Shown here: piece by piece, positions 22,349-51,131 of the stretch
Numbering within the stretch: position 1 is the stretch's first letter
How the letters are laid out: each line of letters starts with the position of its first letter
Assembly: GCF_030384885.1 (NCBI RefSeq)
Contig: NZ_CP128613.1
Strand: one strand, 5' to 3'
Length of the DNA: 64,000 nt
From: Escherichia coli
GTDB lineage: Bacteria > Pseudomonadota > Gammaproteobacteria > Enterobacterales > Enterobacteriaceae
The notes under the pieces: model-generated
What the model was told of the DNA's origin: nothing
Seen by the model: the letters and a program-made list of their open reading frames with translations, nothing else
Database searches by the model: none
Program-made: the position numbers and the translations under genes

Positions 22349-22436
22349 GGTGAGGTGTCCGAGTGGCTGAAGGAGCACGCCTGGAAAGTGTGTATACGGC
22401 AACGTATCGGGGGTTCGAATCCCCCCCTCACCGCCA
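22349..22436 (+). tRNA. serX: tRNA-Ser (anticodon GGA)
   Basis: GGTGAGGTGTCCGAGTGGCTGAAGGAGCACGCCTGGAAAGTGTG...GGTTCGAATCCCCCCCTCACCGCCA: class II tRNA with long variable arm, GGA in the anticodon loop, CCA 3' end. Confidence 0.9.
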
Positions 22437-22537
22437 TCTTTAAAGAAGAGCTCGTACGAAAGTACGGGCTTTTTTTTCGTATATTGCACACACCGGGGGG
22501 ATGAGAAGCCCCGACAGGGGTTCGACAACTGGCGACA
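22415..22537 (+). repeat. Direct repeat copy A: serX 3' end plus ~100 bp downstream
   Basis: Begins with the last 22 nt of the tRNA and includes a terminator-like hairpin (cgtacgaaagtacg + T8); near-identical to copy B. Confidence 0.75.
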
Positions 22538-22596
22538 GCCAGTTGGACAGACCGTGAACGCAGTGAGCGGGCTGCCCGCAGGGCGAGCGAAGCGAG

Positions 22597-22717
22597 TCAA
22601 TCCCCCCCTCACCGCCATCTTTAAAGAAGAGCTCGTACGAAGGTACGGGCTTTTTTTTCGTATATTGCACACACCGGGGGATGAAAAGCCCCGACCGGGG
22701 TTCGACAACTGGCGACA
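22597..22717 (+). repeat. Direct repeat copy B: duplicated serX 3' end and downstream segment
   Basis: ~97% identical to copy A (tcaatccccccctcaccgcca...ggcgaca); ends 3 nt before the dgcT stop codon. Confidence 0.75.
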
Positions 22718-22720
22718 AAC

Positions 22721-30909: not shown

Positions 30910-31974
30910 TTAACTGTATGCATGTAGCGTACGTTGGCAAAGTGCCGAACGTACGCAATCCTCTTTACCGAATCGGACGATCCCGACCATTTCATCCTCT
31001 TCGAAACGTTCCAGCGCGTCACTTAATCCGGAGCGCACGCCGCGAGGCAAATCGCATTGCGTGATATCACCGTTGACGATAACCGTCACGTTCTCCCCGA
31101 GGCGGGTTAAAAACATTTTCATTTGCGCGGCAGTCACATTCTGCGCCTCGTCAAGAATGACGACTGCATTTTCAAAGGTACGTCCACGCATATAGGCGAA
31201 CGGCGCAATTTCCACCTTCCCTATTTCCGGTCGCAGGCAGTACTGCATAAAGGAAGCCCCTAAGCGACGGACCAGCACGTCGTAGACCGGGCGAAAATAG
31301 GGAGCAAACTTTTCTGCGATATCACCAGGTAAGAAACCTAGATCTTCATCGGCTTGCAGAACTGGACGGGTGACAATAATCCTGTCGACATCCTTATGTA
31401 TCAGGGCCTCTGCCGCTTTTGCGGCACTGATCCAGGTTTTTCCGCACCCGGCTTCGCCGGTGGCGAATATCAGCTGCTTACTCTCAATAGCCTTCAGATA
31501 GTGCAATTGCGCTTCATTTCGCGCGAGGATGGGCGAGGTATCGCGACTGTCGCGGGCCATACCAATGGCTTCTACGCCGCTCATCTGCACAAGCGAGGTG
31601 ACCGATTCTTCTTCACGCTGCTTATGGCTGCGCGAATCCCGTCTCAGCACACGTTTTGCCTCGCGACGAGCTTTGATCACTGCTTTTTGTCTTCCCATGG
31701 AGAGCACCTTGAGTTGTTTGTATTCATCACACGCGCCGTTGGCAGCGCGATTATGCGCACGAACATCAGAGGGTTGGCTTCCTTGTAAGCCATAGTTTGC
31801 TGTTGGATAAAATGCCGAAAAACGGCTACGCACACCGTTTGCGGCGTCGGTAACACATGAAAAGTAAGGAAGAATTTGAAAATGCAAAGTGACGAGATGA
31901 CTACCGGAGGAGAAATCTCCGCGAGTGGTGGAGCGTTGCTTAACAAAACATTGTCCAGTACAGGACGTTACCAT
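30910..31974 (-). CDS. phoH: PhoH, phosphate-starvation-inducible ATPase (354 aa)
   Basis: 354-aa ORF with Walker A motif GEAGCGKT. Confidence 0.9.
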   Translation of the reverse strand: MVTSCTGQCFVKQRSTTRGDFSSGSHLVTLHFQILPYFSCVTDAANGVRSRFSAFYPTANYGLQGSQPSDVRAHNRAANGACDEYKQLKVLSMGRQKAVIKARREAKRVLRRDSRSHKQREEESVTSLVQMSGVEAIGMARDSRDTSPILARNEAQLHYLKAIESKQLIFATGEAGCGKTWISAAKAAEALIHKDVDRIIVTRPVLQADEDLGFLPGDIAEKFAPYFRPVYDVLVRRLGASFMQYCLRPEIGKVEIAPFAYMRGRTFENAVVILDEAQNVTAAQMKMFLTRLGENVTVIVNGDITQCDLPRGVRSGLSDALERFEEDEMVGIVRFGKEDCVRSALCQRTLHAYS

Positions 31975-32159: not shown

Positions 32160-32430
32160 GCTTTCAGCAGGATTCGCATCAGGCATCAACGCACGAACGC
32201 CGGATGCGGCGTGAACGCCTTATCCTGCCTACCGAACCCGCACCGATTGTAGGCATGATAAGACGCGCAAGCGTCGCATCAGGCATCAACGCACGAACGC
32301 CGGATGCGGCGTGAAAGCCTTATCCAGCCTACCGAACCCGCACCGATTGTAGGCATGATAAGACGTGTAAGCGTCGCATCAGGCATCAGCGCACGAGCGC
32401 CTGGTGCGGCGTAAACGCCTTATACGCCTA
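32160..32430. repeat. Cluster of REP/BIME elements
   Basis: Three tandem ~115-bp units containing gcatcaggcatcaacgcacgaacgccggatgcggcgtgaacgccttatc...gtaggcatgataagacg. Confidence 0.7.
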
Positions 32431-32436
32431 AAAACA

Positions 32437-33708
32437 TTAAACCCGCAATAATGCGCTTCCAAGATAATCGTTCGTGTCCTTCACACCCGGCAGCGCAAAG
32501 AAATAGCCGCCACCGATGGGTTTAACGTATTCCTCCAGCGCCTCGCCATTCAACCTTTTTTGTACTGTCAGGAAGCCCTTTTCCAGATCGTGTTGGTAGC
32601 AGACAAACAGCAACCCCATATCCAGTTGCCCGGAGTTGGTAACACCCAACGAATAACTGTAGCCACGACGCAGCATCAAACTAGACTCGCTCTCCGTCGT
32701 GCGGGGATTCGCCAGCCGGATATGGCTGTCCAGCGCGATCACCTTCCCTTCCGGATCACTGGCGTAATCGGGAACATCATGCTCATGCTGCATTCCCAGC
32801 GGCGCGCCGGTTTGTTTATCACGCCCAAATATCGTCTGCTGTTCTTTCAGCGGCGTTCTGTCCCAAAACTCCACCCGAAACTGAATCAACCGCACCGCCT
32901 GGTAGCTGCCGCCGATAGCCCAGGCAGGCTCCTGCTGATCTGCCGTCACCCACACCACTTGTTGCATCAACTTATCATTCTGGCTATCGGGATTGGCAGT
33001 GCCGTCTTTGAAACCCAGCAAATTTATCGGCGTCTCTTTACCTTTACTACGCGCCGCGTGGTCGGAAATAAACCCTTCCCGCTTCCAACGCACGCTGAGC
33101 AAATCCGGCGTGTGTTTGATGATATCGCGCAGCGCATGGATCACCGTGTCCTGGGTGTTGGCGCAAATTTGTAGCAACACATCACCATGACATAACGCCG
33201 CATCCAGCGAGTCGTTGGGGAAACGCGTCATCTTCTGCAACTTTTTCGGCATCTGTGGCGCAAGACCAAACCGTTCATCAAACAACGAGTGACCAACTGA
33301 CAACGTGATGGTGAGATTATCGGGCGCAATGTAGCCGCCAAGAATGCCGGAATCGCGTGGTGGCAGGCGTGGATTTGGCGTTTCTGGTGCCGCTCCGCCC
33401 TGAGTCAGAAAAGCAAAACGCTGAGTCAACAAGCGAAACAATCGCTCAAGATCAGCTTTATCGCTGGCAAGCACATCAAACGCCACCAGCATCATTGCCG
33501 CCTGCTGCGGCGTCAGAATACCCGCCTGATGTTCGCCATAAAACGGCTGCGCTTCACTGCGCGCATCCGGTGAAAGCGTCCCCGGCGCACTTAGTGGTTT
33601 TTGCGCATGCGCTACCGGGCAACTTCCCGCCAGTGCCAGCGCGCCAATCCCTTTCAGTAAACGTCGGCGTGACGGTTTATTCACGCCGTTTTCATCTTCA
33701 TACTGCAT
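32437..33708 (-). CDS. efeB: Dye-decolorising peroxidase / deferrochelatase EfeB, Tat-secreted (423 aa)
   Basis: 423-aa ORF with twin-arginine signal ([16 protein letters not shown]). Confidence 0.9.
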
Positions 33709-33713
33709 AACGC

Positions 33714-34841
33714 TTAATCCAGTCCCAGCACACCGCGAAGTTGCGCCAGATCTTCCGCTAGCGCAGTAATCGGCCCTTTCAGCGCATTACGATCGGCATC
33801 GGTCAATTTGTCGTAGGTTTCAAAACCGTCTTTGGTACGGTATTTCGCCAGAATGGTATCGACCTTTTTGAAGTTAGCATCGACTTTTGCCAGCAGTTCC
33901 GGGTTGGCTTTTTGTAGTTGTGGACGCAGCAGATCGACAATTTTCTGCGAGCCTTCAACGTTAGCCTGGAAGTCCCACAGATCGGTGTGGCTGTAGCGAT
34001 CTTCTTCACCGCTGATTTTGCTGGCTGCCACTTCCTCAATCAGTCCGGCTGCGCCGCCGACCACTTTTGAAGGTGGGAAAGCCAGTTCACTGATGCGTTT
34101 TTGCAAATCGACCACATCGGTATAAAGCTGGTCAGCATACTGATCCATTCCTTTGGTGGTATTGTCGCCAAACAATGCTTTTTCCAGACGGTGGAAACCG
34201 GTGAATTTCGGATCGGCGGCTTTTTGCTCGTAATCATCTTCACGGGCGTCAATGCTGCCATCCAGATCGGAGAAAAGTTCAGCAATCGGTTCGATGCGCT
34301 CATAGTGCTGGCGCGTCGGCGCATACAGTGCTTTCGCTTTTTCGATATCGCCTGCTTTAATAGCGTCGGTAAAGGCTTTGGTGTCGGTCACCAGTTGCGT
34401 GGTTTCCGCCATGACATACGCTTTATATGCAGTAATTGCACCACCAAGACTTAACAGCGCATCACTTTGCGCCGCATCCGCCGTTGCTTCACCTTTGACG
34501 ATCAACTTCCCTTTCGGGTTAGTCAGCAGACCGCAGGTCATATCGTATTCGCCAGGCTGTAAATTCGCCGTCATTTTCTGGCTAAAACCAGGGGCGATAT
34601 TTTCCCGCTCTTCCACCACCATCACGCCTTTGAGGATCTCCCACTCCAGCGCCTTCTGGCTATGGTTCTGAATAATGAACTGTGTTTTCCCGGCGTTAAC
34701 CGTAATGGTCATCGGTTCGCACTGCTTATCTGTCACAGTGACTTTGACCTGCGGAATATCAGCGGCGTTAGCCATAAAAGCAGAAGAGAACAGCGCAGCC
34801 ACGCTCAACTGCAATGCGTTACGGCGGAAGTTAATGGTCAT
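33714..34841 (-). CDS. efeO: Periplasmic iron uptake protein EfeO (375 aa)
   Basis: 375-aa ORF with signal peptide; operon position between efeU and efeB. Confidence 0.9.
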
Positions 34842-34898
34842 GACGAGACTATCCCTTTAAAGTATGTTGTAACTAAGCAAGAGTTTGCGTCATTTTCG

Positions 34899-35729
34899 TT
34901 ACGCGGAGCGAGACGCTGTCGCCCCTGCGCGCGGCGGCAGAGCAAATGCCACCAGCGCCGGGATGAGATAAATAAACCAGACGGCGACTTCGCTGACGCT
35001 CGGCGCTTCCTGATAACCAAAGATACCTTCCATCAGCGTACCGAACAGCGAGTGAGTTGAGAGCACCGCGCTCATATCGAAGGCGATTTCCTGAAAGTGG
35101 TTCCACAGCCCGGCTTCATGAAACGCGCGAATAGCACCTGCCGCCAGCCCTGCGGCGACGAAGAGAATAAACAGGCTGGTCCATTTAAAAAACGCGCCAA
35201 GATTGAGGCGAATACCGCCCCAGTAGAGCAGGAAGCCGAGCACCACGGCTGTAGCAAGACCGAGCATTGCACCCAGCGGAGGCCAGATACCGACATCTTG
35301 TTGAAACGCCGCCAGCAGGAAAAAGACCGACTCCAGTCCTTCCCTTGCAACGGCAAAAAAGACCATCATCACCAGCGCCCAGCCATGATGATTCCCACGC
35401 TGCAATGCGCTATCGACTGCCTGTTCCAGTTGCACTTTGACGTTGCGCGACACTTTACGCATCCAGAAAACCATCCAGGTGAGGATCACCACGGCAATCA
35501 CCGCCACGATACCTTCGAACAATTCCTGCTCTTTTTGCGGAAATTCGCCGGTAGTTTCATTAATGAATATACCCAGCCCCAGGCACAACGCAGCGGCTAG
35601 CAACACGCCAATCCACATGACACCAATCCATCGACCTCGCTGGGTACGCTTAAGATAGCTGGCAATCAGGCTGACAATCAGCGCGGCTTCAAGTCCTTCG
35701 CGCAACATAATGAGAAACGGAACAAACAT
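34899..35729 (-). CDS. efeU: Ferrous iron permease EfeU, intact (276 aa)
   Basis: Uninterrupted ORF 34899-35738; start at MFVPFLIMLREGLEA; two REGLE motifs typical of the Ftr1/EfeU family. Confidence 0.85.
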   Translation of the reverse strand: MFVPFLIMLREGLEAALIVSLIASYLKRTQRGRWIGVMWIGVLLAAALCLGLGIFINETTGEFPQKEQELFEGIVAVIAVVILTWMVFWMRKVSRNVKVQLEQAVDSALQRGNHHGWALVMMVFFAVAREGLESVFFLLAAFQQDVGIWPPLGAMLGLATAVVLGFLLYWGGIRLNLGAFFKWTSLFILFVAAGLAAGAIRAFHEAGLWNHFQEIAFDMSAVLSTHSLFGTLMEGIFGYQEAPSVSEVAVWFIYLIPALVAFALPPRAGATASRSA

Positions 35730-35785
35730 GCCACCCACCCTTAAACGTTTTTCTGAGTCAATCTATGCAAAGAAAAGTAAATCGC

Positions 35786-35806
35786 AGTGATAGCGATTAT
35801 CATTAC
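35786..35806 (-). promoter_or_regulatory. Candidate Fur box upstream of efeU
   Basis: Minus strand reads GTAATGATAATCGCTATCACT, close to the GATAATGATAATCATTATC consensus; a second Fur-like GTGATAATGATGAGG lies at about 35830-35846. Confidence 0.5.
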
Positions 35807-35875
35807 GGTGAAGAAAAACACAAGCGGAATGTAGTGATAATGATGAGGAAATGTAAATTTTATTTGAGAGAAAAT

Positions 35876-35906
35876 GCAGAGGGCAATCACTGATTGCCCT
35901 CTGCCT
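35876..35906 (-). terminator. Rho-independent terminator downstream of putP
   Basis: Perfect hairpin cagagggcaatc-actg-attgccctctg followed on the minus strand by a T-rich tract. Confidence 0.55.
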
Positions 35907-35948
35907 GCTTCTGATTATGGCGTGGAATTTTCGGTAAAACGCCTTCCC

Positions 35949-37457
<1,509 letters not shown>

Positions 37458-37639
37458 CTAAAGTCTCCAAAAAATTATTATCGGCAATGTCGAAACTTGC
37501 CGTTATATCTGCCACCGGAACGGGGTAGCAGAGTTTATGTTTTACCAGGGCGACCGTATCCTGCCGGAAGCGCTGGTTATTCACAATCGATTTAACACAC
37601 CATTTACATTAAATTTTAGTGCTCAGCGATACTATTTTT

Positions 37640-37860
37640 CATCAGGTTGCACTCCCTCACATTTTTTGTGGTTGCACCTTTCAAAAATGTTAACTGCCGC
37701 AGAGAAAAAGTCTGAGTTATTTTTTTAATCCCTGTCATATCGATTTCTTTTATTAACATTTCATTCATTTTTAAGCTTGCTACGCAGGTCACATTTAACA
37801 TAGTTGCACAAAGTTGCAACATCATGGATATTTCACGATAACGTTAAGTTGCACCTTTCA
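37640..37860. promoter_or_regulatory. put control region with five GTTGCA motifs (PutA operator half-sites)
   Basis: GTTGCA at 37646, 37671, 37803, 37813 and 37848 within the putP-putA divergent intergenic region; PutA is established to bind GTTGCA motifs. Confidence 0.7.
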
Positions 37861-37879
37861 GAACAACAGGAGTAATGGC

Positions 37880-40800
37880 ATGGGAACCACCACCATGGGG
37901 GTTAAGCTGGACGACGCGACGCGTGAACGCATTAAGTCTGCCGCGACACGTATCGATCGCACACCGCACTGGTTAATTAAGCAGGCGATTTTTTCTTATC
38001 TTGAACAACTGGAAAACAGCGATACTCTGCCGGAGCTACCTGCGCTGCTTTCTGGCGCGGCCAATGAGAGCGATGAAGTACCGAATCCGGCAGAGGAACC
38101 ACACCAGCCATTCCTCGACTTTGCCGAGCAAATTTTGCCACAGTCGGTTTCCCGTGCGGCTATCACCGCCGCCTATCGCCGCCCGGAAACCGAAGCGGTT
38201 TCTATGCTGCTGGAACAAGCTCGCCTGCCGCAGCCGGTTGCTGAACAGGCGCATAAACTGGCGTATCAACTGGCCGATAAACTGCGTAATCAAAAAAATG
38301 CCAGTGGTCGCGCAGGCATGGTTCAGGGATTATTGCAGGAGTTTTCGCTGTCATCGCAGGAAGGCGTGGCGCTGATGTGTCTGGCGGAAGCACTATTGCG
38401 TATTCCCGACAAAGCCACCCGTGATGCGTTAATACGCGACAAAATCAGCAACGGTAACTGGCAGTCACATATTGGTCGTAGCCCGTCGCTGTTTGTTAAT
38501 GCCGCCACCTGGGGGCTTCTCTTTACCGGCAAACTGGTTTCTACCCATAACGAAGCCAGCCTCTCCCGTTCGCTGAATCGCATTATCGGTAAGAGTGGCG
38601 AACCGCTAATCCGCAAAGGTGTGGATATGGCGATGCGTCTGATGGGCGAGCAGTTCGTCACTGGTGAAACCATCGCGGAAGCGTTAGCCAATGCCCGCAA
38701 GCTGGAAGAGAAAGGTTTCCGTTACTCCTACGATATGCTGGGCGAAGCCGCACTGACCGCAGCGGACGCGCAGGCATATATGGTTTCCTATCAGCAGGCG
38801 ATTCACGCTATTGGTAAAGCCTCCAATGGTCGTGGCATCTATGAAGGTCCAGGCATTTCAATCAAGCTGTCGGCGCTGCATCCGCGCTACAGCCGCGCCC
38901 AGTACGATCGGTTAATGGAAGAGCTTTACCCGCGTCTGAAATCATTAACCTTGCTGGCGCGTCAGTACGATATTGGTATTAACATTGATGCCGAAGAGGC
39001 CGATCGTCTGGAGATCTCCCTCGATCTGTTGGAAAAGCTTTGTTTCGAGCCTGAACTGGCAGGCTGGAACGGCATCGGTTTTGTTATTCAGGCTTATCAA
39101 AAACGCTGCCCGCTGGTGATCGATTACCTGATTGATCTCGCCACCCGCAGCCGTCGTCGTCTGATGATTCGCCTGGTGAAAGGCGCGTACTGGGATAGTG
39201 AAATCAAACGTGCGCAAATGGACGGCCTTGAAGGTTATCCGGTTTATACCCGCAAGGTGTATACCGATGTTTCTTATCTCGCTTGTGCGAAAAAGCTGCT
39301 GGCGGTGCCAAATCTCATTTACCCGCAGTTTGCAACGCACAACGCCCACACGCTGGCGGCGATTTATCAACTGGCAGGTCAAAACTACTATCCGGGTCAG
39401 TACGAGTTCCAGTGCCTGCATGGTATGGGCGAGCCACTGTATGAGCAGGTCACCGGGAAAGTTGCCGACGGCAAACTTAACCGTCCGTGTCGTATTTATG
39501 CTCCGGTCGGTACCCATGAAACACTGCTGGCATATCTGGTGCGTCGCCTGCTGGAAAACGGTGCTAACACCTCGTTTGTTAACCGTATTGCTGATACCTC
39601 TTTGCCACTGGATGAACTGGTTGCCGATCCAGTCACTGCAGTAGAAAAACTGGCGCAACAGGAAGGGCAAACTGGATTACCCCATCCGAAAATTCCCCTG
39701 CCGCGCGATCTTTACGGTCACGGGCGCGACAACTCGGCAGGGCTGGATCTCGCCAATGAACACCGACTGGCCTCGCTCTCCTCAGCCCTGCTCAACAGTG
39801 CACTGCAAAAATGGCAGGCCTTGCCAATGCTGGAACAACCGGTCGCGGCTGGTGAAATGTCACCCGTTATCAACCCGGCGGAACCGAAAGATATTGTGGG
39901 CTATGTGCGTGAAGCCACGCCACGTGAAGTAGAACAGGCGCTGGAAAGTGCAGTTAATAACGCGCCAATCTGGTTTGCCACGCCTCCGGCCGAACGCGCG
40001 GCGATTTTGCATCGCGCTGCCGTACTGATGGAAAGTCAGATGCAGCAACTGATTGGTATTCTGGTACGTGAGGCCGGAAAAACCTTCAGTAACGCCATTG
40101 CCGAAGTGCGTGAAGCCGTCGATTTTCTCCACTACTACGCGGGACAGGTGCGGGATGATTTCGCTAACGAAACCCACCGTCCATTAGGGCCTGTGGTGTG
40201 TATCAGCCCGTGGAATTTCCCGCTGGCGATTTTCACCGGGCAAATCGCTGCCGCACTGGCGGCAGGTAACAGCGTACTGGCAAAACCGGCAGAACAAACG
40301 CCGCTGATTGCCGCACAAGGGATTGCCATTTTGCTGGAAGCGGGTGTACCGCCAGGCGTGGTGCAGTTGTTGCCCGGTCAGGGTGAAACCGTAGGCGCGC
40401 AACTGACGGGTGATGATCGCGTGCGCGGGGTGATGTTTACCGGATCAACCGAAGTCGCTACGTTACTGCAACGCAATATCGCCAGCCGCCTGGACGCTCA
40501 GGGTCGCCCAATTCCACTCATTGCGGAAACCGGCGGCATGAACGCGATGATTGTCGATTCTTCAGCACTGACCGAACAAGTCGTAATAGATGTGCTGGCC
40601 TCGGCCTTCGACAGTGCGGGTCAGCGTTGTTCGGCACTGCGCGTGCTGTGCCTGCAAGATGAGATTGCCGACCACACGTTGAAAATGCTGCGCGGCGCAA
40701 TGGCCGAATGCCGGATGGGTAATCCGGGTCGCCTGACCACCGATATCGGTCCGGTGATTGATGGCGAAGCGAAAGCCAATATCGAGCGCCATATTCAGAC

Positions 40801-41842
40801 TATGCGTAGTAAAGGCCGTCCGGTGTTCCAGGCGGTGCGGGAAAACAGTGAAGATGCCCGTGAGTGGCAAAGTGGCACCTTTGTCGCCCCGACGCTGATC
40901 GAACTGGATGATTTTGCCGAATTGCAAAAAGAGGTATTTGGTCCGGTGCTGCATGTGGTGCGTTACAACCGTAACCAGTTGCCGGAACTGATCGAACAGA
41001 TTAACGCTTCCGGTTATGGTCTGACGCTTGGCGTCCATACGCGCATTGATGAAACCATTGCCCAGGTCACTGGCTCGGCCCATGTCGGTAATCTGTATGT
41101 TAACCGTAATATGGTGGGCGCAGTGGTTGGGGTGCAACCATTCGGCGGCGAAGGGTTGTCCGGCACCGGGCCGAAAGCAGGCGGCCCGCTCTATCTCTAC
41201 CGTCTGCTGGCGAATCGCCCGGAAAGTGCGCTGGCGGTGACACTGGCGCGTCAGGATGCAGAGTATCCGGTCGATGCACAATTGAAATCCGCATTGATCC
41301 AGCCGCTAAATGCACTGCGTGAATGGTCGGCAAACCGTCCAGAATTGCAGGCGTTATGTACGCAATATAGCGAGCTGGCGCAGGCAGGAACACAACGATT
41401 GCTGCCAGGGCCGACGGGTGAACGCAACACCTGGACGCTGCTGCCGCGTGAGCGCGTGTTGTGTATTGCGGATGATGAACAGGATGCGCTGACTCAGCTC
41501 GCCGCCGTGCTGGCGGTGGGCAGCCAGGTGCTGTGGCCGGATGACGCTCTGCATCGTCAGTTAGTGAAGGCATTGCCATCGGCAGTCAGCGAACGTATTC
41601 AACTGGCGAAAGTGGAAAATATTACCGCTCAACCGTTTAATGCGGTGATCTTCCACGGGGATTCGGATCAGCTTCGTGCATTGTGTGAAGCGGTTGCCGC
41701 GCGGGATGGCGCAATTGTTTCGGTGCAGGGTTTTGCCCGTGGCGAAAGCAATATCCTGCTGGAACGGTTGTATATCGAGCGTTCGCTGAGCGTGAATACC
41801 GCTGCCGCTGGCGGTAACGCCAGTTTAATGACGATTGGTTAA
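37880..41842 (+). CDS. putA: Bifunctional proline dehydrogenase / P5C dehydrogenase and transcriptional repressor PutA (1320 aa)
   Basis: ORF 37814-41842; start at MGTTTMGVKLDDATRERIK (ribbon-helix-helix N-terminus) gives 1320 aa. Confidence 0.95.
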   Translation: MGTTTMGVKLDDATRERIKSAATRIDRTPHWLIKQAIFSYLEQLENSDTLPELPALLSGAANESDEVPNPAEEPHQPFLDFAEQILPQSVSRAAITAAYRRPETEAVSMLLEQARLPQPVAEQAHKLAYQLADKLRNQKNASGRAGMVQGLLQEFSLSSQEGVALMCLAEALLRIPDKATRDALIRDKISNGNWQSHIGRSPSLFVNAATWGLLFTGKLVSTHNEASLSRSLNRIIGKSGEPLIRKGVDMAMRLMGEQFVTGETIAEALANARKLEEKGFRYSYDMLGEAALTAADAQAYMVSYQQAIHAIGKASNGRGIYEGPGISIKLSALHPRYSRAQYDRLMEELYPRLKSLTLLARQYDIGINIDAEEADRLEISLDLLEKLCFEPELAGWNGIGFVIQAYQKRCPLVIDYLIDLATRSRRRLMIRLVKGAYWDSEIKRAQMDGLEGYPVYTRKVYTDVSYLACAKKLLAVPNLIYPQFATHNAHTLAAIYQLAGQNYYPGQYEFQCLHGMGEPLYEQVTGKVADGKLNRPCRIYAPVGTHETLLAYLVRRLLENGANTSFVNRIADTSLPLDELVADPVTAVEKLAQQEGQTGLPHPKIPLPRDLYGHGRDNSAGLDLANEHRLASLSSALLNSALQKWQALPMLEQPVAAGEMSPVINPAEPKDIVGYVREATPREVEQALESAVNNAPIWFATPPAERAAILHRAAVLMESQMQQLIGILVREAGKTFSNAIAEVREAVDFLHYYAGQVRDDFANETHRPLGPVVCISPWNFPLAIFTGQIAAALAAGNSVLAKPAEQTPLIAAQGIAILLEAGVPPGVVQLLPGQGETVGAQLTGDDRVRGVMFTGSTEVATLLQRNIASRLDAQGRPIPLIAETGGMNAMIVDSSALTEQVVIDVLASAFDSAGQRCSALRVLCLQDEIADHTLKMLRGAMAECRMGNPGRLTTDIGPVIDGEAKANIERHIQTMRSKGRPVFQAVRENSEDAREWQSGTFVAPTLIELDDFAELQKEVFGPVLHVVRYNRNQLPELIEQINASGYGLTLGVHTRIDETIAQVTGSAHVGNLYVNRNMVGAVVGVQPFGGEGLSGTGPKAGGPLYLYRLLANRPESALAVTLARQDAEYPVDAQLKSALIQPLNALREWSANRPELQALCTQYSELAQAGTQRLLPGPTGERNTWTLLPRERVLCIADDEQDALTQLAAVLAVGSQVLWPDDALHRQLVKALPSAVSERIQLAKVENITAQPFNAVIFHGDSDQLRALCEAVAARDGAIVSVQGFARGESNILLERLYIERSLSVNTAAAGGNASLMTIG

Positions 41843-41881
41843 GCAGGTTGCCGGAGGATGCTATAACCTCCTCCGGCATCA

Positions 41882-42520
41882 TTAACGTGGTCGAATCCCC
41901 TCAAGAATAATCCGCTGCACGTTTTCAACCGTTTGATTGAAAAACACTTCATCGCGCAACGTGGCACCTGTCACCGCCTCCACCTGAGGGGCGAAATCGG
42001 CGTAATGTTGAGTGGAAGCCCAGATCATAAAAATCAAATGCTGCGGATCAATCAGCGCGAGTTTGCCGCTTTTAACCCAACCGGCAATCAGCGCCGATTT
42101 CTCATCAATTAACGTTTTCAAATCGCCCGTTAGCTCATCCATTAATAACGGTGCGCCTGCCAACATCTCCATACAGAACAGGCGCGAAGCCTGCGGATAA
42201 TCGCGGGAGACTTCCAGCTTCAGACGGATGTACTCTTTAATCGCTGCCAGCGGGGCGAAATCTTCTCGAAACGCTTTTAACGGTGCCAGCCAGATATCGA
42301 GAATCTGCCGCAGTACGGCTATATACAGCGCCTCTTTTGACGGAAAGTAATACAGCAGATTGGTTTTTGAAACACCCGCCAACTCCGCGATCTGCTCCAG
42401 CCTTGTGCCGTGAAAACCGAATTGTGAAAAAGTGTCCAGTGCTGCGCTAAGAATCGCTTTTTTCTTCGCGCTCACTGCGCGCGAACGTTTACCCGTTGTT
42501 TTCACTGCGCCTTGCGTCAT
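41882..42520 (-). CDS. rutR: TetR-family pyrimidine utilisation regulator RutR (212 aa)
   Basis: ORF 41882-42547; start at MTQGAVKTTGKR; TetR-type HTH (LDTFSQFGFHGTRLEQIAELAGVSKTNLLYYF). Confidence 0.9.
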   Translation of the reverse strand: MTQGAVKTTGKRSRAVSAKKKAILSAALDTFSQFGFHGTRLEQIAELAGVSKTNLLYYFPSKEALYIAVLRQILDIWLAPLKAFREDFAPLAAIKEYIRLKLEVSRDYPQASRLFCMEMLAGAPLLMDELTGDLKTLIDEKSALIAGWVKSGKLALIDPQHLIFMIWASTQHYADFAPQVEAVTGATLRDEVFFNQTVENVQRIILEGIRPR

Positions 42521-42625
42521 GCGCTCTCCCCTCTTGTTGATTGGCAACAGGATAGCAAAACCCCCGCCCGGCCTCGACCTTCTGCACTCTCATCGCGCAC
42601 GAATGCATGTTTTATGTGCAATTGT

Positions 42626-42641
42626 TTTGACCGTTTAGTCC
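42626..42641. promoter_or_regulatory. Candidate RutR operator
   Basis: TTGACCgtttaGTCCA resembles the TTGACCAnnTGGTCAA RutR consensus, in the rutR-rutA intergenic region. Confidence 0.4.
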
Positions 42642-42705
42642 ACTTTTTTCCAGGTATTTTAGATAACTTAACATTAACACATTAATAACATTCACTTTTT
42701 AAAAA

Positions 42706-42722
42706 CTGGCATCCGCTTTGCA
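42706..42722 (+). promoter_or_regulatory. Candidate sigma-54 promoter of the rut operon
   Basis: cTGGCAtccgcTTTGCA matches the -24 GG / -12 GC spacing (TGGCA-N6-TTGCA); the rut operon is established to be NtrC/sigma-54 dependent. Confidence 0.6.
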
Positions 42723-42750
42723 AACAAACCATTACGCGGCTGAAAAGGAT

Positions 42751-44591
<1,841 letters not shown>

Positions 44592-49732: not shown

Positions 49733-49759
49733 CTCCCCCGTAGTGAACGGGGGAGTTTT
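49733..49759 (+). terminator. Rho-independent terminator after yccJ
   Basis: ctcccccg-tagtgaa-cgggggag followed by tttt. Confidence 0.75.
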
Positions 49760-50259
49760 CGATTATTCATTGACCAACGTCTCATGTCCTGTTATTACTG
49801 TGAGATATTCAATCACGTTATCAAATAAAAAAATCGATATCATTGCGGTAAGCTTGTTATTGATTATAAATATGGGTAATAAGCGATATCCAGCATGAAT
49901 TTGATTGTACAGGGTATTTCCTATATAGCCATTGGTTAAATCTTGAAGATAAGATACCTCCGGCTGAAAAATCCATCCCGGCAATGAAGGATGTGATATT
50001 TTCGTAATTCTCTTGCAGAATAAACAACCCTGGATACGCTCTGAATACAAGGAAATTTTCCAATAAATTATTTATTCATCAATACTCCCCGGCGAGGATC
50101 ATCAAAATATCTCATTATCTTTTAAAACTGCCCAGCCCGTTATAACGGACGTTATCTGGCGCACGCTGAAGTGGGCATGATACTCACTTTCATTAAAATG
50201 CTCGACATGATTTGCTAATCGCTTAGCTAGATAATTGACGTTCAGTCTGTGCCAAATTT

Positions 50260-50619
50260 TTAGCGAAAAATAGCAAATTTAAGCCGGGAATTTATCAAAG
50301 CATCCTCATTTACTTCACCATGAACAATAAAGTCACGCATAAACTGCAGGTGTTTAATTAATAAAATCCATTCACTTTCAGTAAGATAGTTTTTCCCACG
50401 CAGATTATAATACAGAGATTTGATTAATGGGATCTTCTGCTTATGGCGCTTTGACCGCGCTGAGCACAATATTTGTTCTATCAGGCCAAGCGTCCCTTTC
50501 TGACGCAACCAGCACCGGAGTTCAGACTGCGCGCTAATGCCGCGAGCCACCGACAAATGTATTTGGGTAAGCAATGCGTATAAACCTAATAAAAACGCGT
50601 CGTGATAATACCGCTTCAT
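50260..50619 (-). CDS. Hypothetical protein (119 aa) in an AT-rich insertion; C-terminal R-x4-H-G motif (HEPN-like?)
   Basis: ATG at 50619 preceded at 12 nt by the previous ORF's TAA and an SD-like GAGGTGGG; translation MKRYYHDAFLLGLYALL...HLQFMRDFIVHGEVNEDALINSRLKFAIFR. I recognise no family; the reading frame is open in a very AT-rich context. Confidence 0.5.
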   Translation of the reverse strand: MKRYYHDAFLLGLYALLTQIHLSVARGISAQSELRCWLRQKGTLGLIEQILCSARSKRHKQKIPLIKSLYYNLRGKNYLTESEWILLIKHLQFMRDFIVHGEVNEDALINSRLKFAIFR

Positions 50620-50631
50620 TACCCACCTCTG

Positions 50632-51000
50632 TTATCGTAATTTTTTAAACAAATAATCATATAAAATTTCGGCAATGAATTCTGCATGTTCACGTCGCAC
50701 AATGACATTCATAACGTAATATTGCGCAGCAATTTCATTGATAAAATGTTCAGGCAGTATGAATACGCGTGCATAAGCCGAGTATATTTCCAGTATTTCA
50801 TTTGAGATGTTTTCAAGATCAACGCAATAATTTGTCACATCATAAAAAAGATTAGCGTATTTTTTATTAATTATGCTAAGGCATATAAATGGGGCATTTA
50901 ATTTTTCACACAATTGCCAGTGCGTTCTTTCATTTTCTCCCTTCCATGTATACTTCATTTTGTCAGCCATCCTTTGATTTACGCGTCTGAAGTTTACCAC
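50632..51000 (-). CDS. Hypothetical protein (up to 122 aa; start may be GTG 51000 or the internal ATGs MADK / MKYTW) in an AT-rich insertion
   Basis: Open frame immediately upstream of and co-directional with the 119-aa ORF; candidate -10 TATAAT on the minus strand at 51036-51041. No family recognised. Confidence 0.45.
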   Translation of the reverse strand: MVNFRRVNQRMADKMKYTWKGENERTHWQLCEKLNAPFICLSIINKKYANLFYDVTNYCVDLENISNEILEIYSAYARVFILPEHFINEIAAQYYVMNVIVRREHAEFIAEILYDYLFKKLR

Positions 51001-51098
51001 TGTGTCTGGGGTAAACCATGCGTTCTATGGTAAAAATTATACGAGATGTGGCGCTGCGTAATATTCTGCTCCCTCAATATATTTCTGGTGAATATGTT

Positions 51099-51131
51099 CC
51101 AGGTTAATTGGGAAGATCTGCATGTGATCTT
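51099..51131. repeat. Perfect 13-bp inverted repeat aattgggaagatc-N7-gatcttcccaatt
   Basis: Seen directly; lies ~40 bp beyond the agp stop at the edge of the AT-rich insertion; candidate terminator or protein-binding palindrome. Confidence 0.6.

Follow-up and report, generated by a model that had tools for sequence, protein, structure and literature searches.

EfeU (YcdN) of E. coli Nissle 1917 is named as a ferrous-iron uptake transporter in the title of Grosse et al. 2006 (Mol Microbiol 62:120), and the intact efeU of that strain gave the first description of this transporter. The whole system, EfeUOB (YcdNOB), is characterized in the title of Cao et al. 2007 (Mol Microbiol 65:857), as it is quoted in three reference lists, as cryptic in K-12 and functional in O157:H7. 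A statement in PMC2808357 attributes the non-functional transporter of MG1655 to a frameshift in efeU. As to the parts of the system, a passage in PMC4746246 describes EfeU as homologous to yeast Ftr1p and both EfeO and EfeB as required.

The DNA analysed here, called the window, is a 64-kb stretch of E. coli sequence. Its minus-strand region 32437-35729 is, with high confidence, a chromosomal efeUOB operon of the ordinary kind, from an E. coli other than K-12, and it occupies the usual place between putP and phoH. The three genes follow one another in the same orientation in the order efeU-efeO-efeB, with gaps of 57 bp and 5 bp, and all three products score above NCBIfam equivalog cutoffs. 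The locus putP-efeUOB-phoH, its genes, and their spacing are the same as in O157:H7.

The efeU coding sequence occupies 34899-35729 on the minus strand and encodes a predicted Ftr1-type inner-membrane iron permease. In the list of open reading frames it appears as a frame of 279 amino acids that opens with a GTG (34899-35738). From the ATG at 35729, the gene consists of 276 codons and a stop, and the 276-amino acid protein begins MFVPFLIMLREGLEAAL... This start is preceded by a purine stretch, AAGGGTGGGT (35733-35742, minus strand), read directly from the sequence, which lies 4-13 nt before the ATG and appears to be Shine-Dalgarno-like. In the near-identical genome NZ_CP027579.1, the matching 831-bp CDS is annotated by RefSeq as efeU with the protein accession WP_000497942.1. 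The original prediction held that efeU runs uninterrupted for 276 codons and keeps both of its REGLE motifs. Both points are confirmed: there are no internal stops from the ATG, and the two motifs are found at residues 10-14 (35688-35702, minus strand) and 129-133 (35331-35345, minus strand).

The assignment of EfeU to its family comes from several profiles. The NCBIfam EfeU equivalog NF041756 matched residues 5-262 of the protein over profile positions 1-256 of 257 with 331.2 bits (cutoff 255), TIGR00145 gave 351.7 bits (cutoff 303.8), and the Pfam profile FTR1 (PF03239) covered the full length of the protein (residues 1-275, 300 bits, E=1.8e-89). Judged by hydropathy alone (Kyte-Doolittle, 19-residue window), EfeU has seven hydrophobic segments, with peaks at residues 5-23, 38-56, 70-88, 119-137, 152-170, 185-203, and 248-266. 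The motif and hydropathy scans place the two REGLE (REXXE) motifs within the first and the fourth of these peaks. In other words, EfeU displays the features of the EfeU/Ftr1 iron permease family, namely a profile score above cutoff, seven segments, and a REXXE motif in segments 1 and 4. Sequence searches for a solved structure among EfeU/Ftr1 relatives found none. The full-length FTR1 match and the two REXXE motifs in transmembrane segments are what EfeU has in common with the Ftr1p/Fet3p system of Saccharomyces cerevisiae. The yeast permease is paired with a multicopper oxidase, whereas EfeU has a cupredoxin/M75 protein and a DyP peroxidase as its partners.

How does this gene differ from its K-12 counterpart? 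It was claimed beforehand that efeU of K-12 is a frameshifted pseudogene, and pairwise alignment with the K-12 gene, proposed as a check on the prediction, bears this out and locates the lesion. The efeU of MG1655 (b4490, NC_000913.3), which lies at the same locus, is flagged as a pseudogene and is 830 nt long, compared with 831 nt in the window. A global alignment of the two genes contains a single gap, where K-12 is missing one G at gene position 106. The site falls at codon 35/36 (35624-35625, minus strand), where the coding strand reads GG in the window and has a single G in MG1655. As a result of this 1-bp deletion, frame 0 of the K-12 gene meets a stop two codons past the missing G. Since the lesion falls after hydrophobic segment 1 and before segment 2, a K-12 product would be without six of the seven segments and without the second REGLE motif. 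Putting the G back makes the K-12 protein 100% identical to that of the window, and all 39 of the remaining nucleotide differences are silent. Repair of the single-base deletion reportedly restores function in K-12.

A difference of a single base raises the question of whether the intact frame is real. That the GG/G site reflects an error of assembly or base calling has no positive support, and the idea comes to mind solely because the difference is one base. The site is a GG against a G, not a long homopolymer, and a careful re-reading of efeU for a premature stop or frameshift, either of which would have overturned the claim, found none. The complete genome of E. coli 2013C-4282 has the same sequence, including the GG, and about 5,000 other complete genomes are free of the exact K-12 deletion sequence. 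We rejected an artefactual origin, which is hardly credible, on the alignment, the agreement with 2013C-4282, and a survey of complete genomes.

For this survey, exact matches were sought to 70 nt of K-12 sequence that include the deletion site. The deletion sequence was present in 368 of 5,383 complete E. coli genomes, and the remaining 5,015 differ from it. Among 40 carriers that were listed, every one is a K-12-type or laboratory strain, including MG1655, C600, DH5alpha, J53, and NEB 5-alpha. A second estimate came from an evenly spaced sample of 40 genomes, in which efeU aligned one base shorter than the query only in AML002_ev01, JB41, and CY34. These three are likewise K-12-type or laboratory records, and a restriction of the shorter form to them is a further argument against the artefact. 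Their share of the sample (7.5%) is close to the 6.8% obtained from the exact match. By these measures, E. coli normally carries an intact efeU (about 93% of complete genomes), and the pseudogene of K-12 is an oddity of the laboratory lineage. Because an intact efeU is the norm of the species, it is no distinguishing mark of this strain. The finding is accordingly right, but it is commonplace and already well established. The system is a textbook case from a well-characterised family, located where it is expected, and holds no surprise for a specialist. The finding adds nothing beyond the publications of 2006-2007, and its value is mostly one of correct annotation. Like almost all natural E. 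coli, the strain deserves to be annotated as having a complete EfeUOB system for iron uptake at low pH.

That the strain is not K-12, as had been proposed from the intact gene, is well supported by the rest of the window. Over its whole 64 kb, the window is 99.978% identical (13 mismatches and one gap) to E. coli 2013C-4282, which was isolated from human stool in the USA. When the window was compared with K-12 in 1-kb pieces, identity was mostly 94-99%, with extremes of 82% and 99.3% and one piece with no match. Moreover, the IS3D/ymdE/ycdU insertion that K-12 carries between dgcT and serX is absent from the window. A K-12 origin of the window was rejected on the near-identity to 2013C-4282 and the divergence per 1-kb piece.

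EfeU is encoded together with two partners that also appear intact. The efeO gene (33714-34841, minus strand) starts 57 bp after efeU and encodes a predicted periplasmic protein of 375 amino acids with a cupredoxin and an M75 (imelysin) domain. Its product matched the NCBIfam EfeO profile with 774 bits, passing the equivalog cutoff, and both Pfam domains, Cupredoxin_1 and Peptidase_M75, were found. Only two of 349 aligned residues differ from the solved structure of E. coli EfeO (PDB 7wgu), and an HRLE motif is located at residue 217. EfeO differs by two amino acids from each of the proteins of K-12, O157:H7 strain LSU61, and UM146, a B2 strain.

The efeB gene (32437-33708, minus strand) starts 5 bp after efeO and encodes 423 amino acids of a predicted Tat-exported DyP-type haem peroxidase/deferrochelatase. 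The profile TIGR01412 ('tat_substr_1') matched with 613 bits (cutoff 428), the Pfam domains Dyp_perox_N and Dyp_perox_C were both present, and the match to the structure of 'peroxidase YcdB' (PDB 2y4f) had E=7e-261. A predicted Tat signal, SRRRLLKG at residues 13-20, contains the twin-arginine motif SRRRLL, and the likely signal-peptide cleavage site can be read from an AHA motif at residues 33-35. The GFKDG motif with D235, as well as H329 and R347, are all kept, so that both the Tat signal and the DyP catalytic residues are present. EfeB differs from the proteins of K-12, O157:H7, and UM146 by 11-13 amino acids, none of which falls on the residues checked.

The operon appears to end at a cluster of REP-type repeats (32175-32430, minus strand) made up of Rfam naRNA4 units, which lies directly downstream of efeB in the efeB-phoH spacer. 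The best unit, at 32252-32329, scored 68.2 bits (gathering score 59.5), weaker copies lie nearby, and the cluster was also detected as an overlapping direct repeat. A search for a canonical terminator downstream of efeB found none. The neighbouring phoH gene (30910-31698) is 789 bp long in NZ_CP027579.1 and 1,065 bp in K-12, a difference of start-site annotation and not of sequence content. Antisense to phoH, where the scanned range ends, there is a truncated match to Rfam Ysr251 that falls just below threshold (98.4 versus 100 bits).

The three genes can be compared further with those of two non-K-12 strains. In O157:H7, EfeU is 100% identical and shares the accession WP_000497942.1. The differences of O157:H7 LSU61 comprise 42 nucleotides in efeU, all of them silent, 12 amino acids in EfeB, and a longer spacer upstream of the operon. 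Nissle 1917 is a phylogroup B2 strain, and UM146 was used as a B2 stand-in for it. EfeU differs from that of UM146 by two amino acids (A263V and A276V). The lack of amino acid change between the window and O157:H7 across 5-6% silent divergence shows, on this comparison, strong purifying selection on EfeU, and such selection in the wild fits a real physiological role.

The spacer between putP and efeU (35730-35948) differs in length from one E. coli to another. It measures 219 bp in the window and in UM146, 542 bp in K-12, and about 2.67 kb in O157:H7 LSU61. The K-12 spacer contains additional REP-like sequence, and that of LSU61 contains an additional hypothetical ORF of 1,344 bp. The 219-bp form is carried by 1,205 genomes, including UM146, which cover at least 80% of it. 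On the side of putP, a GC-rich hairpin with a T-rich tail (35876-35904, minus strand; 13 pairs, 8 of them G-C) was found just after the gene in a terminator-like scan. It is likely to be the putP terminator, which would insulate the efeU promoter region.

On the side of efeU, the window, K-12, O157:H7, and UM146 show no difference over the 78 bp that precede the ATG. This invariant stretch contains 18 of the 19 bases of a Fur-box-like sequence, CGTAATGATAATCGCTATC (35789-35807, minus strand). The box is situated 60-78 bp upstream of the ATG, and 15 of its 19 positions match the consensus. When both strands of the window, about 128,000 positions, were scored against the 19-bp consensus GATAATGATAATCATTATC, this sequence was the single best match. 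A Fur-box-like sequence had been predicted at 35786-35806. The box itself is real, but its position was off by 1-3 bp. At the sequence level, a putative Fur box nearly identical to the K-12 sequence precedes efeU. A passage in PMC7157518 lists efeUOB among the core-genome genes that are directly regulated by Fur in CFT073, and another states that 34 of 35 core Fur operons are common to CFT073 and MG1655.

Other elements of the leader are less distinct. A CpxR-box-like sequence, GCAAAGAAAAGTAAA (35767-35781, plus strand), lies between the Fur box and the ATG and matches GTAAA-N5-GTAAA at 9 of 10 positions. It is invariant in the four strains compared, and the window contains six such matches where 4.6 are expected by chance. 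This tentative box is consistent with published CpxAR control but is no evidence for it, as it is by itself indistinguishable from chance. A promoter scan returned two weak candidates, TTGCCC-18-TAAAAT and TTTACA-18-TACATT, each matching at 9 of 12 positions, and no consensus promoter overlapping the Fur box was found in it. In an Rfam scan of the 31-38 kb region, the efeU leader gave no match to an RNA family. Upstream of about -128 relative to the efeU ATG, the sequence is unrelated to those of K-12 and O157:H7. Because the distal spacer is unrelated and of different length, any distal regulatory input could differ.

It can be strongly inferred from the sequence that efeUOB encodes a working iron uptake system in this strain, because EfeU is identical to the O157:H7 protein and to the repaired K-12 protein, and because the partners and the proximal promoter are conserved. 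The contrary reading, that the system is intact on paper yet non-functional or differently regulated in this lineage, would trace the effect either to the substitutions in EfeB, which is 11-13 amino acids away from each of the other proteins, or to the spacer. The spacer is short compared with the 542 bp and about 2.67 kb of K-12 and O157:H7 LSU61, its K-12 homology ends at ~128 bp upstream of efeU, and a distal regulatory element could have been removed or replaced. However, four of the EfeB changes (residues 38, 39, 51, and 53) lie close behind the likely cleavage site, and the protein retains its Tat motif, all of the catalytic residues named above, and a profile score above cutoff. The short spacer is shared by UM146 and the many other genomes that carry this form, and the proximal 78 bp do not vary. 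EfeU, for its part, has no amino acid changes against 39-42 silent ones, which argues for purifying selection that is still ongoing. A silent or altered system is accordingly very improbable.

Given a working system, the 100% identity of EfeU to the O157:H7 protein suggests that Fe2+ uptake at low pH would depend on EfeUOB here as well. Transport activity, substrate, induction by acid, and the succession of redox steps are all predicted properties. In the mechanism that is most likely, by analogy with the O157:H7 system and with yeast Ftr1p/Fet3p, Fe2+ that is soluble in an aerobic, acidic periplasm would be captured by EfeO. The captured iron would then be oxidised, probably with the help of EfeB, and would cross the membrane via the REXXE glutamates of EfeU. 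Transcription would be shut off by Fe2+-Fur at the box upstream of the ATG, and CpxR probably also represses at neutral or alkaline pH.

What crosses the membrane is a separate matter. One possibility, which we regard as a serious one though somewhat short of probable, is that EfeUOB works but is not a simple ferrous-ion channel, and that it imports either Fe3+ produced by oxidation in the periplasm, in the manner of Ftr1/Fet3, or haem iron obtained via EfeB. Both variants have been put forward before. Passages in PMC3852070 note proposals that EfeO oxidises Fe2+, in which case EfeU may carry Fe3+, and a proposal that EfeB extracts iron from periplasmic haem. The cupredoxin domain of EfeO and the DyP peroxidase/deferrochelatase character of EfeB are compatible with them. 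The sequence does not discriminate between these routes and a ferrous channel, and the proposal refines the mechanism without conflicting with a functional EfeUOB. If it is right, the term 'ferrous iron transporter' would name the substrate taken from outside and not the species that crosses the membrane.

Besides the length of the spacer, the one slightly unusual feature of the locus is a rare, divergent allele. The stretch from efeB to putA is 90-97% identical to K-12, and the region of approximately 32437-44000 (efeB to putA/rutR) is about twice as far from K-12, O157:H7, and B2 as these are from one another. The efeU, efeB, and putP genes of the window differ by 4.7-7.2% from those of K-12, O157:H7, and UM146, which differ from one another by 0.6-3.9%, and efeO differs by only about 3%. 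When the 5-kb efeB-putP segment was compared with other genomes, one matched at 99% or above, 19 at 95-99%, and 5,399 at 90-95%. At least 17 of these 19 relatives are also the closest at the mdo genes. The recurrence of largely the same relatives at both places indicates that the strain is a member of a rare lineage, one that branches deeply and makes up about 0.4% of complete genomes. A further proposal, that the efeB-putA region is an old allele or an import from deep-branching Escherichia and, together with the 219-bp spacer, brings to efeUOB a regulatory input unlike that of the studied strains, is improbable.

Several other parts of the window depart from K-12. The yccE homologue (~52000-54000) has an identity of 82-90% to K-12, far below that of its flanking genes, and identity is 91% in the region of dgcT (23-24 kb). 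An AT-rich segment between yccJ and agp (~49750-51100; GC 0.36-0.40) is without a K-12 counterpart. It contains two minus-strand ORFs, at 50260-50619 (119 aa) and 50632-51000 (122 aa from a GTG), neither of which matched Pfam or PADLOC. Their counterparts in NZ_CP027579.1 are annotated as hypothetical proteins. At 22350-22720, a tRNA-Ser is followed by RtT-type repeats, seen as a direct repeat of 22418-22537 and 22599-22717.
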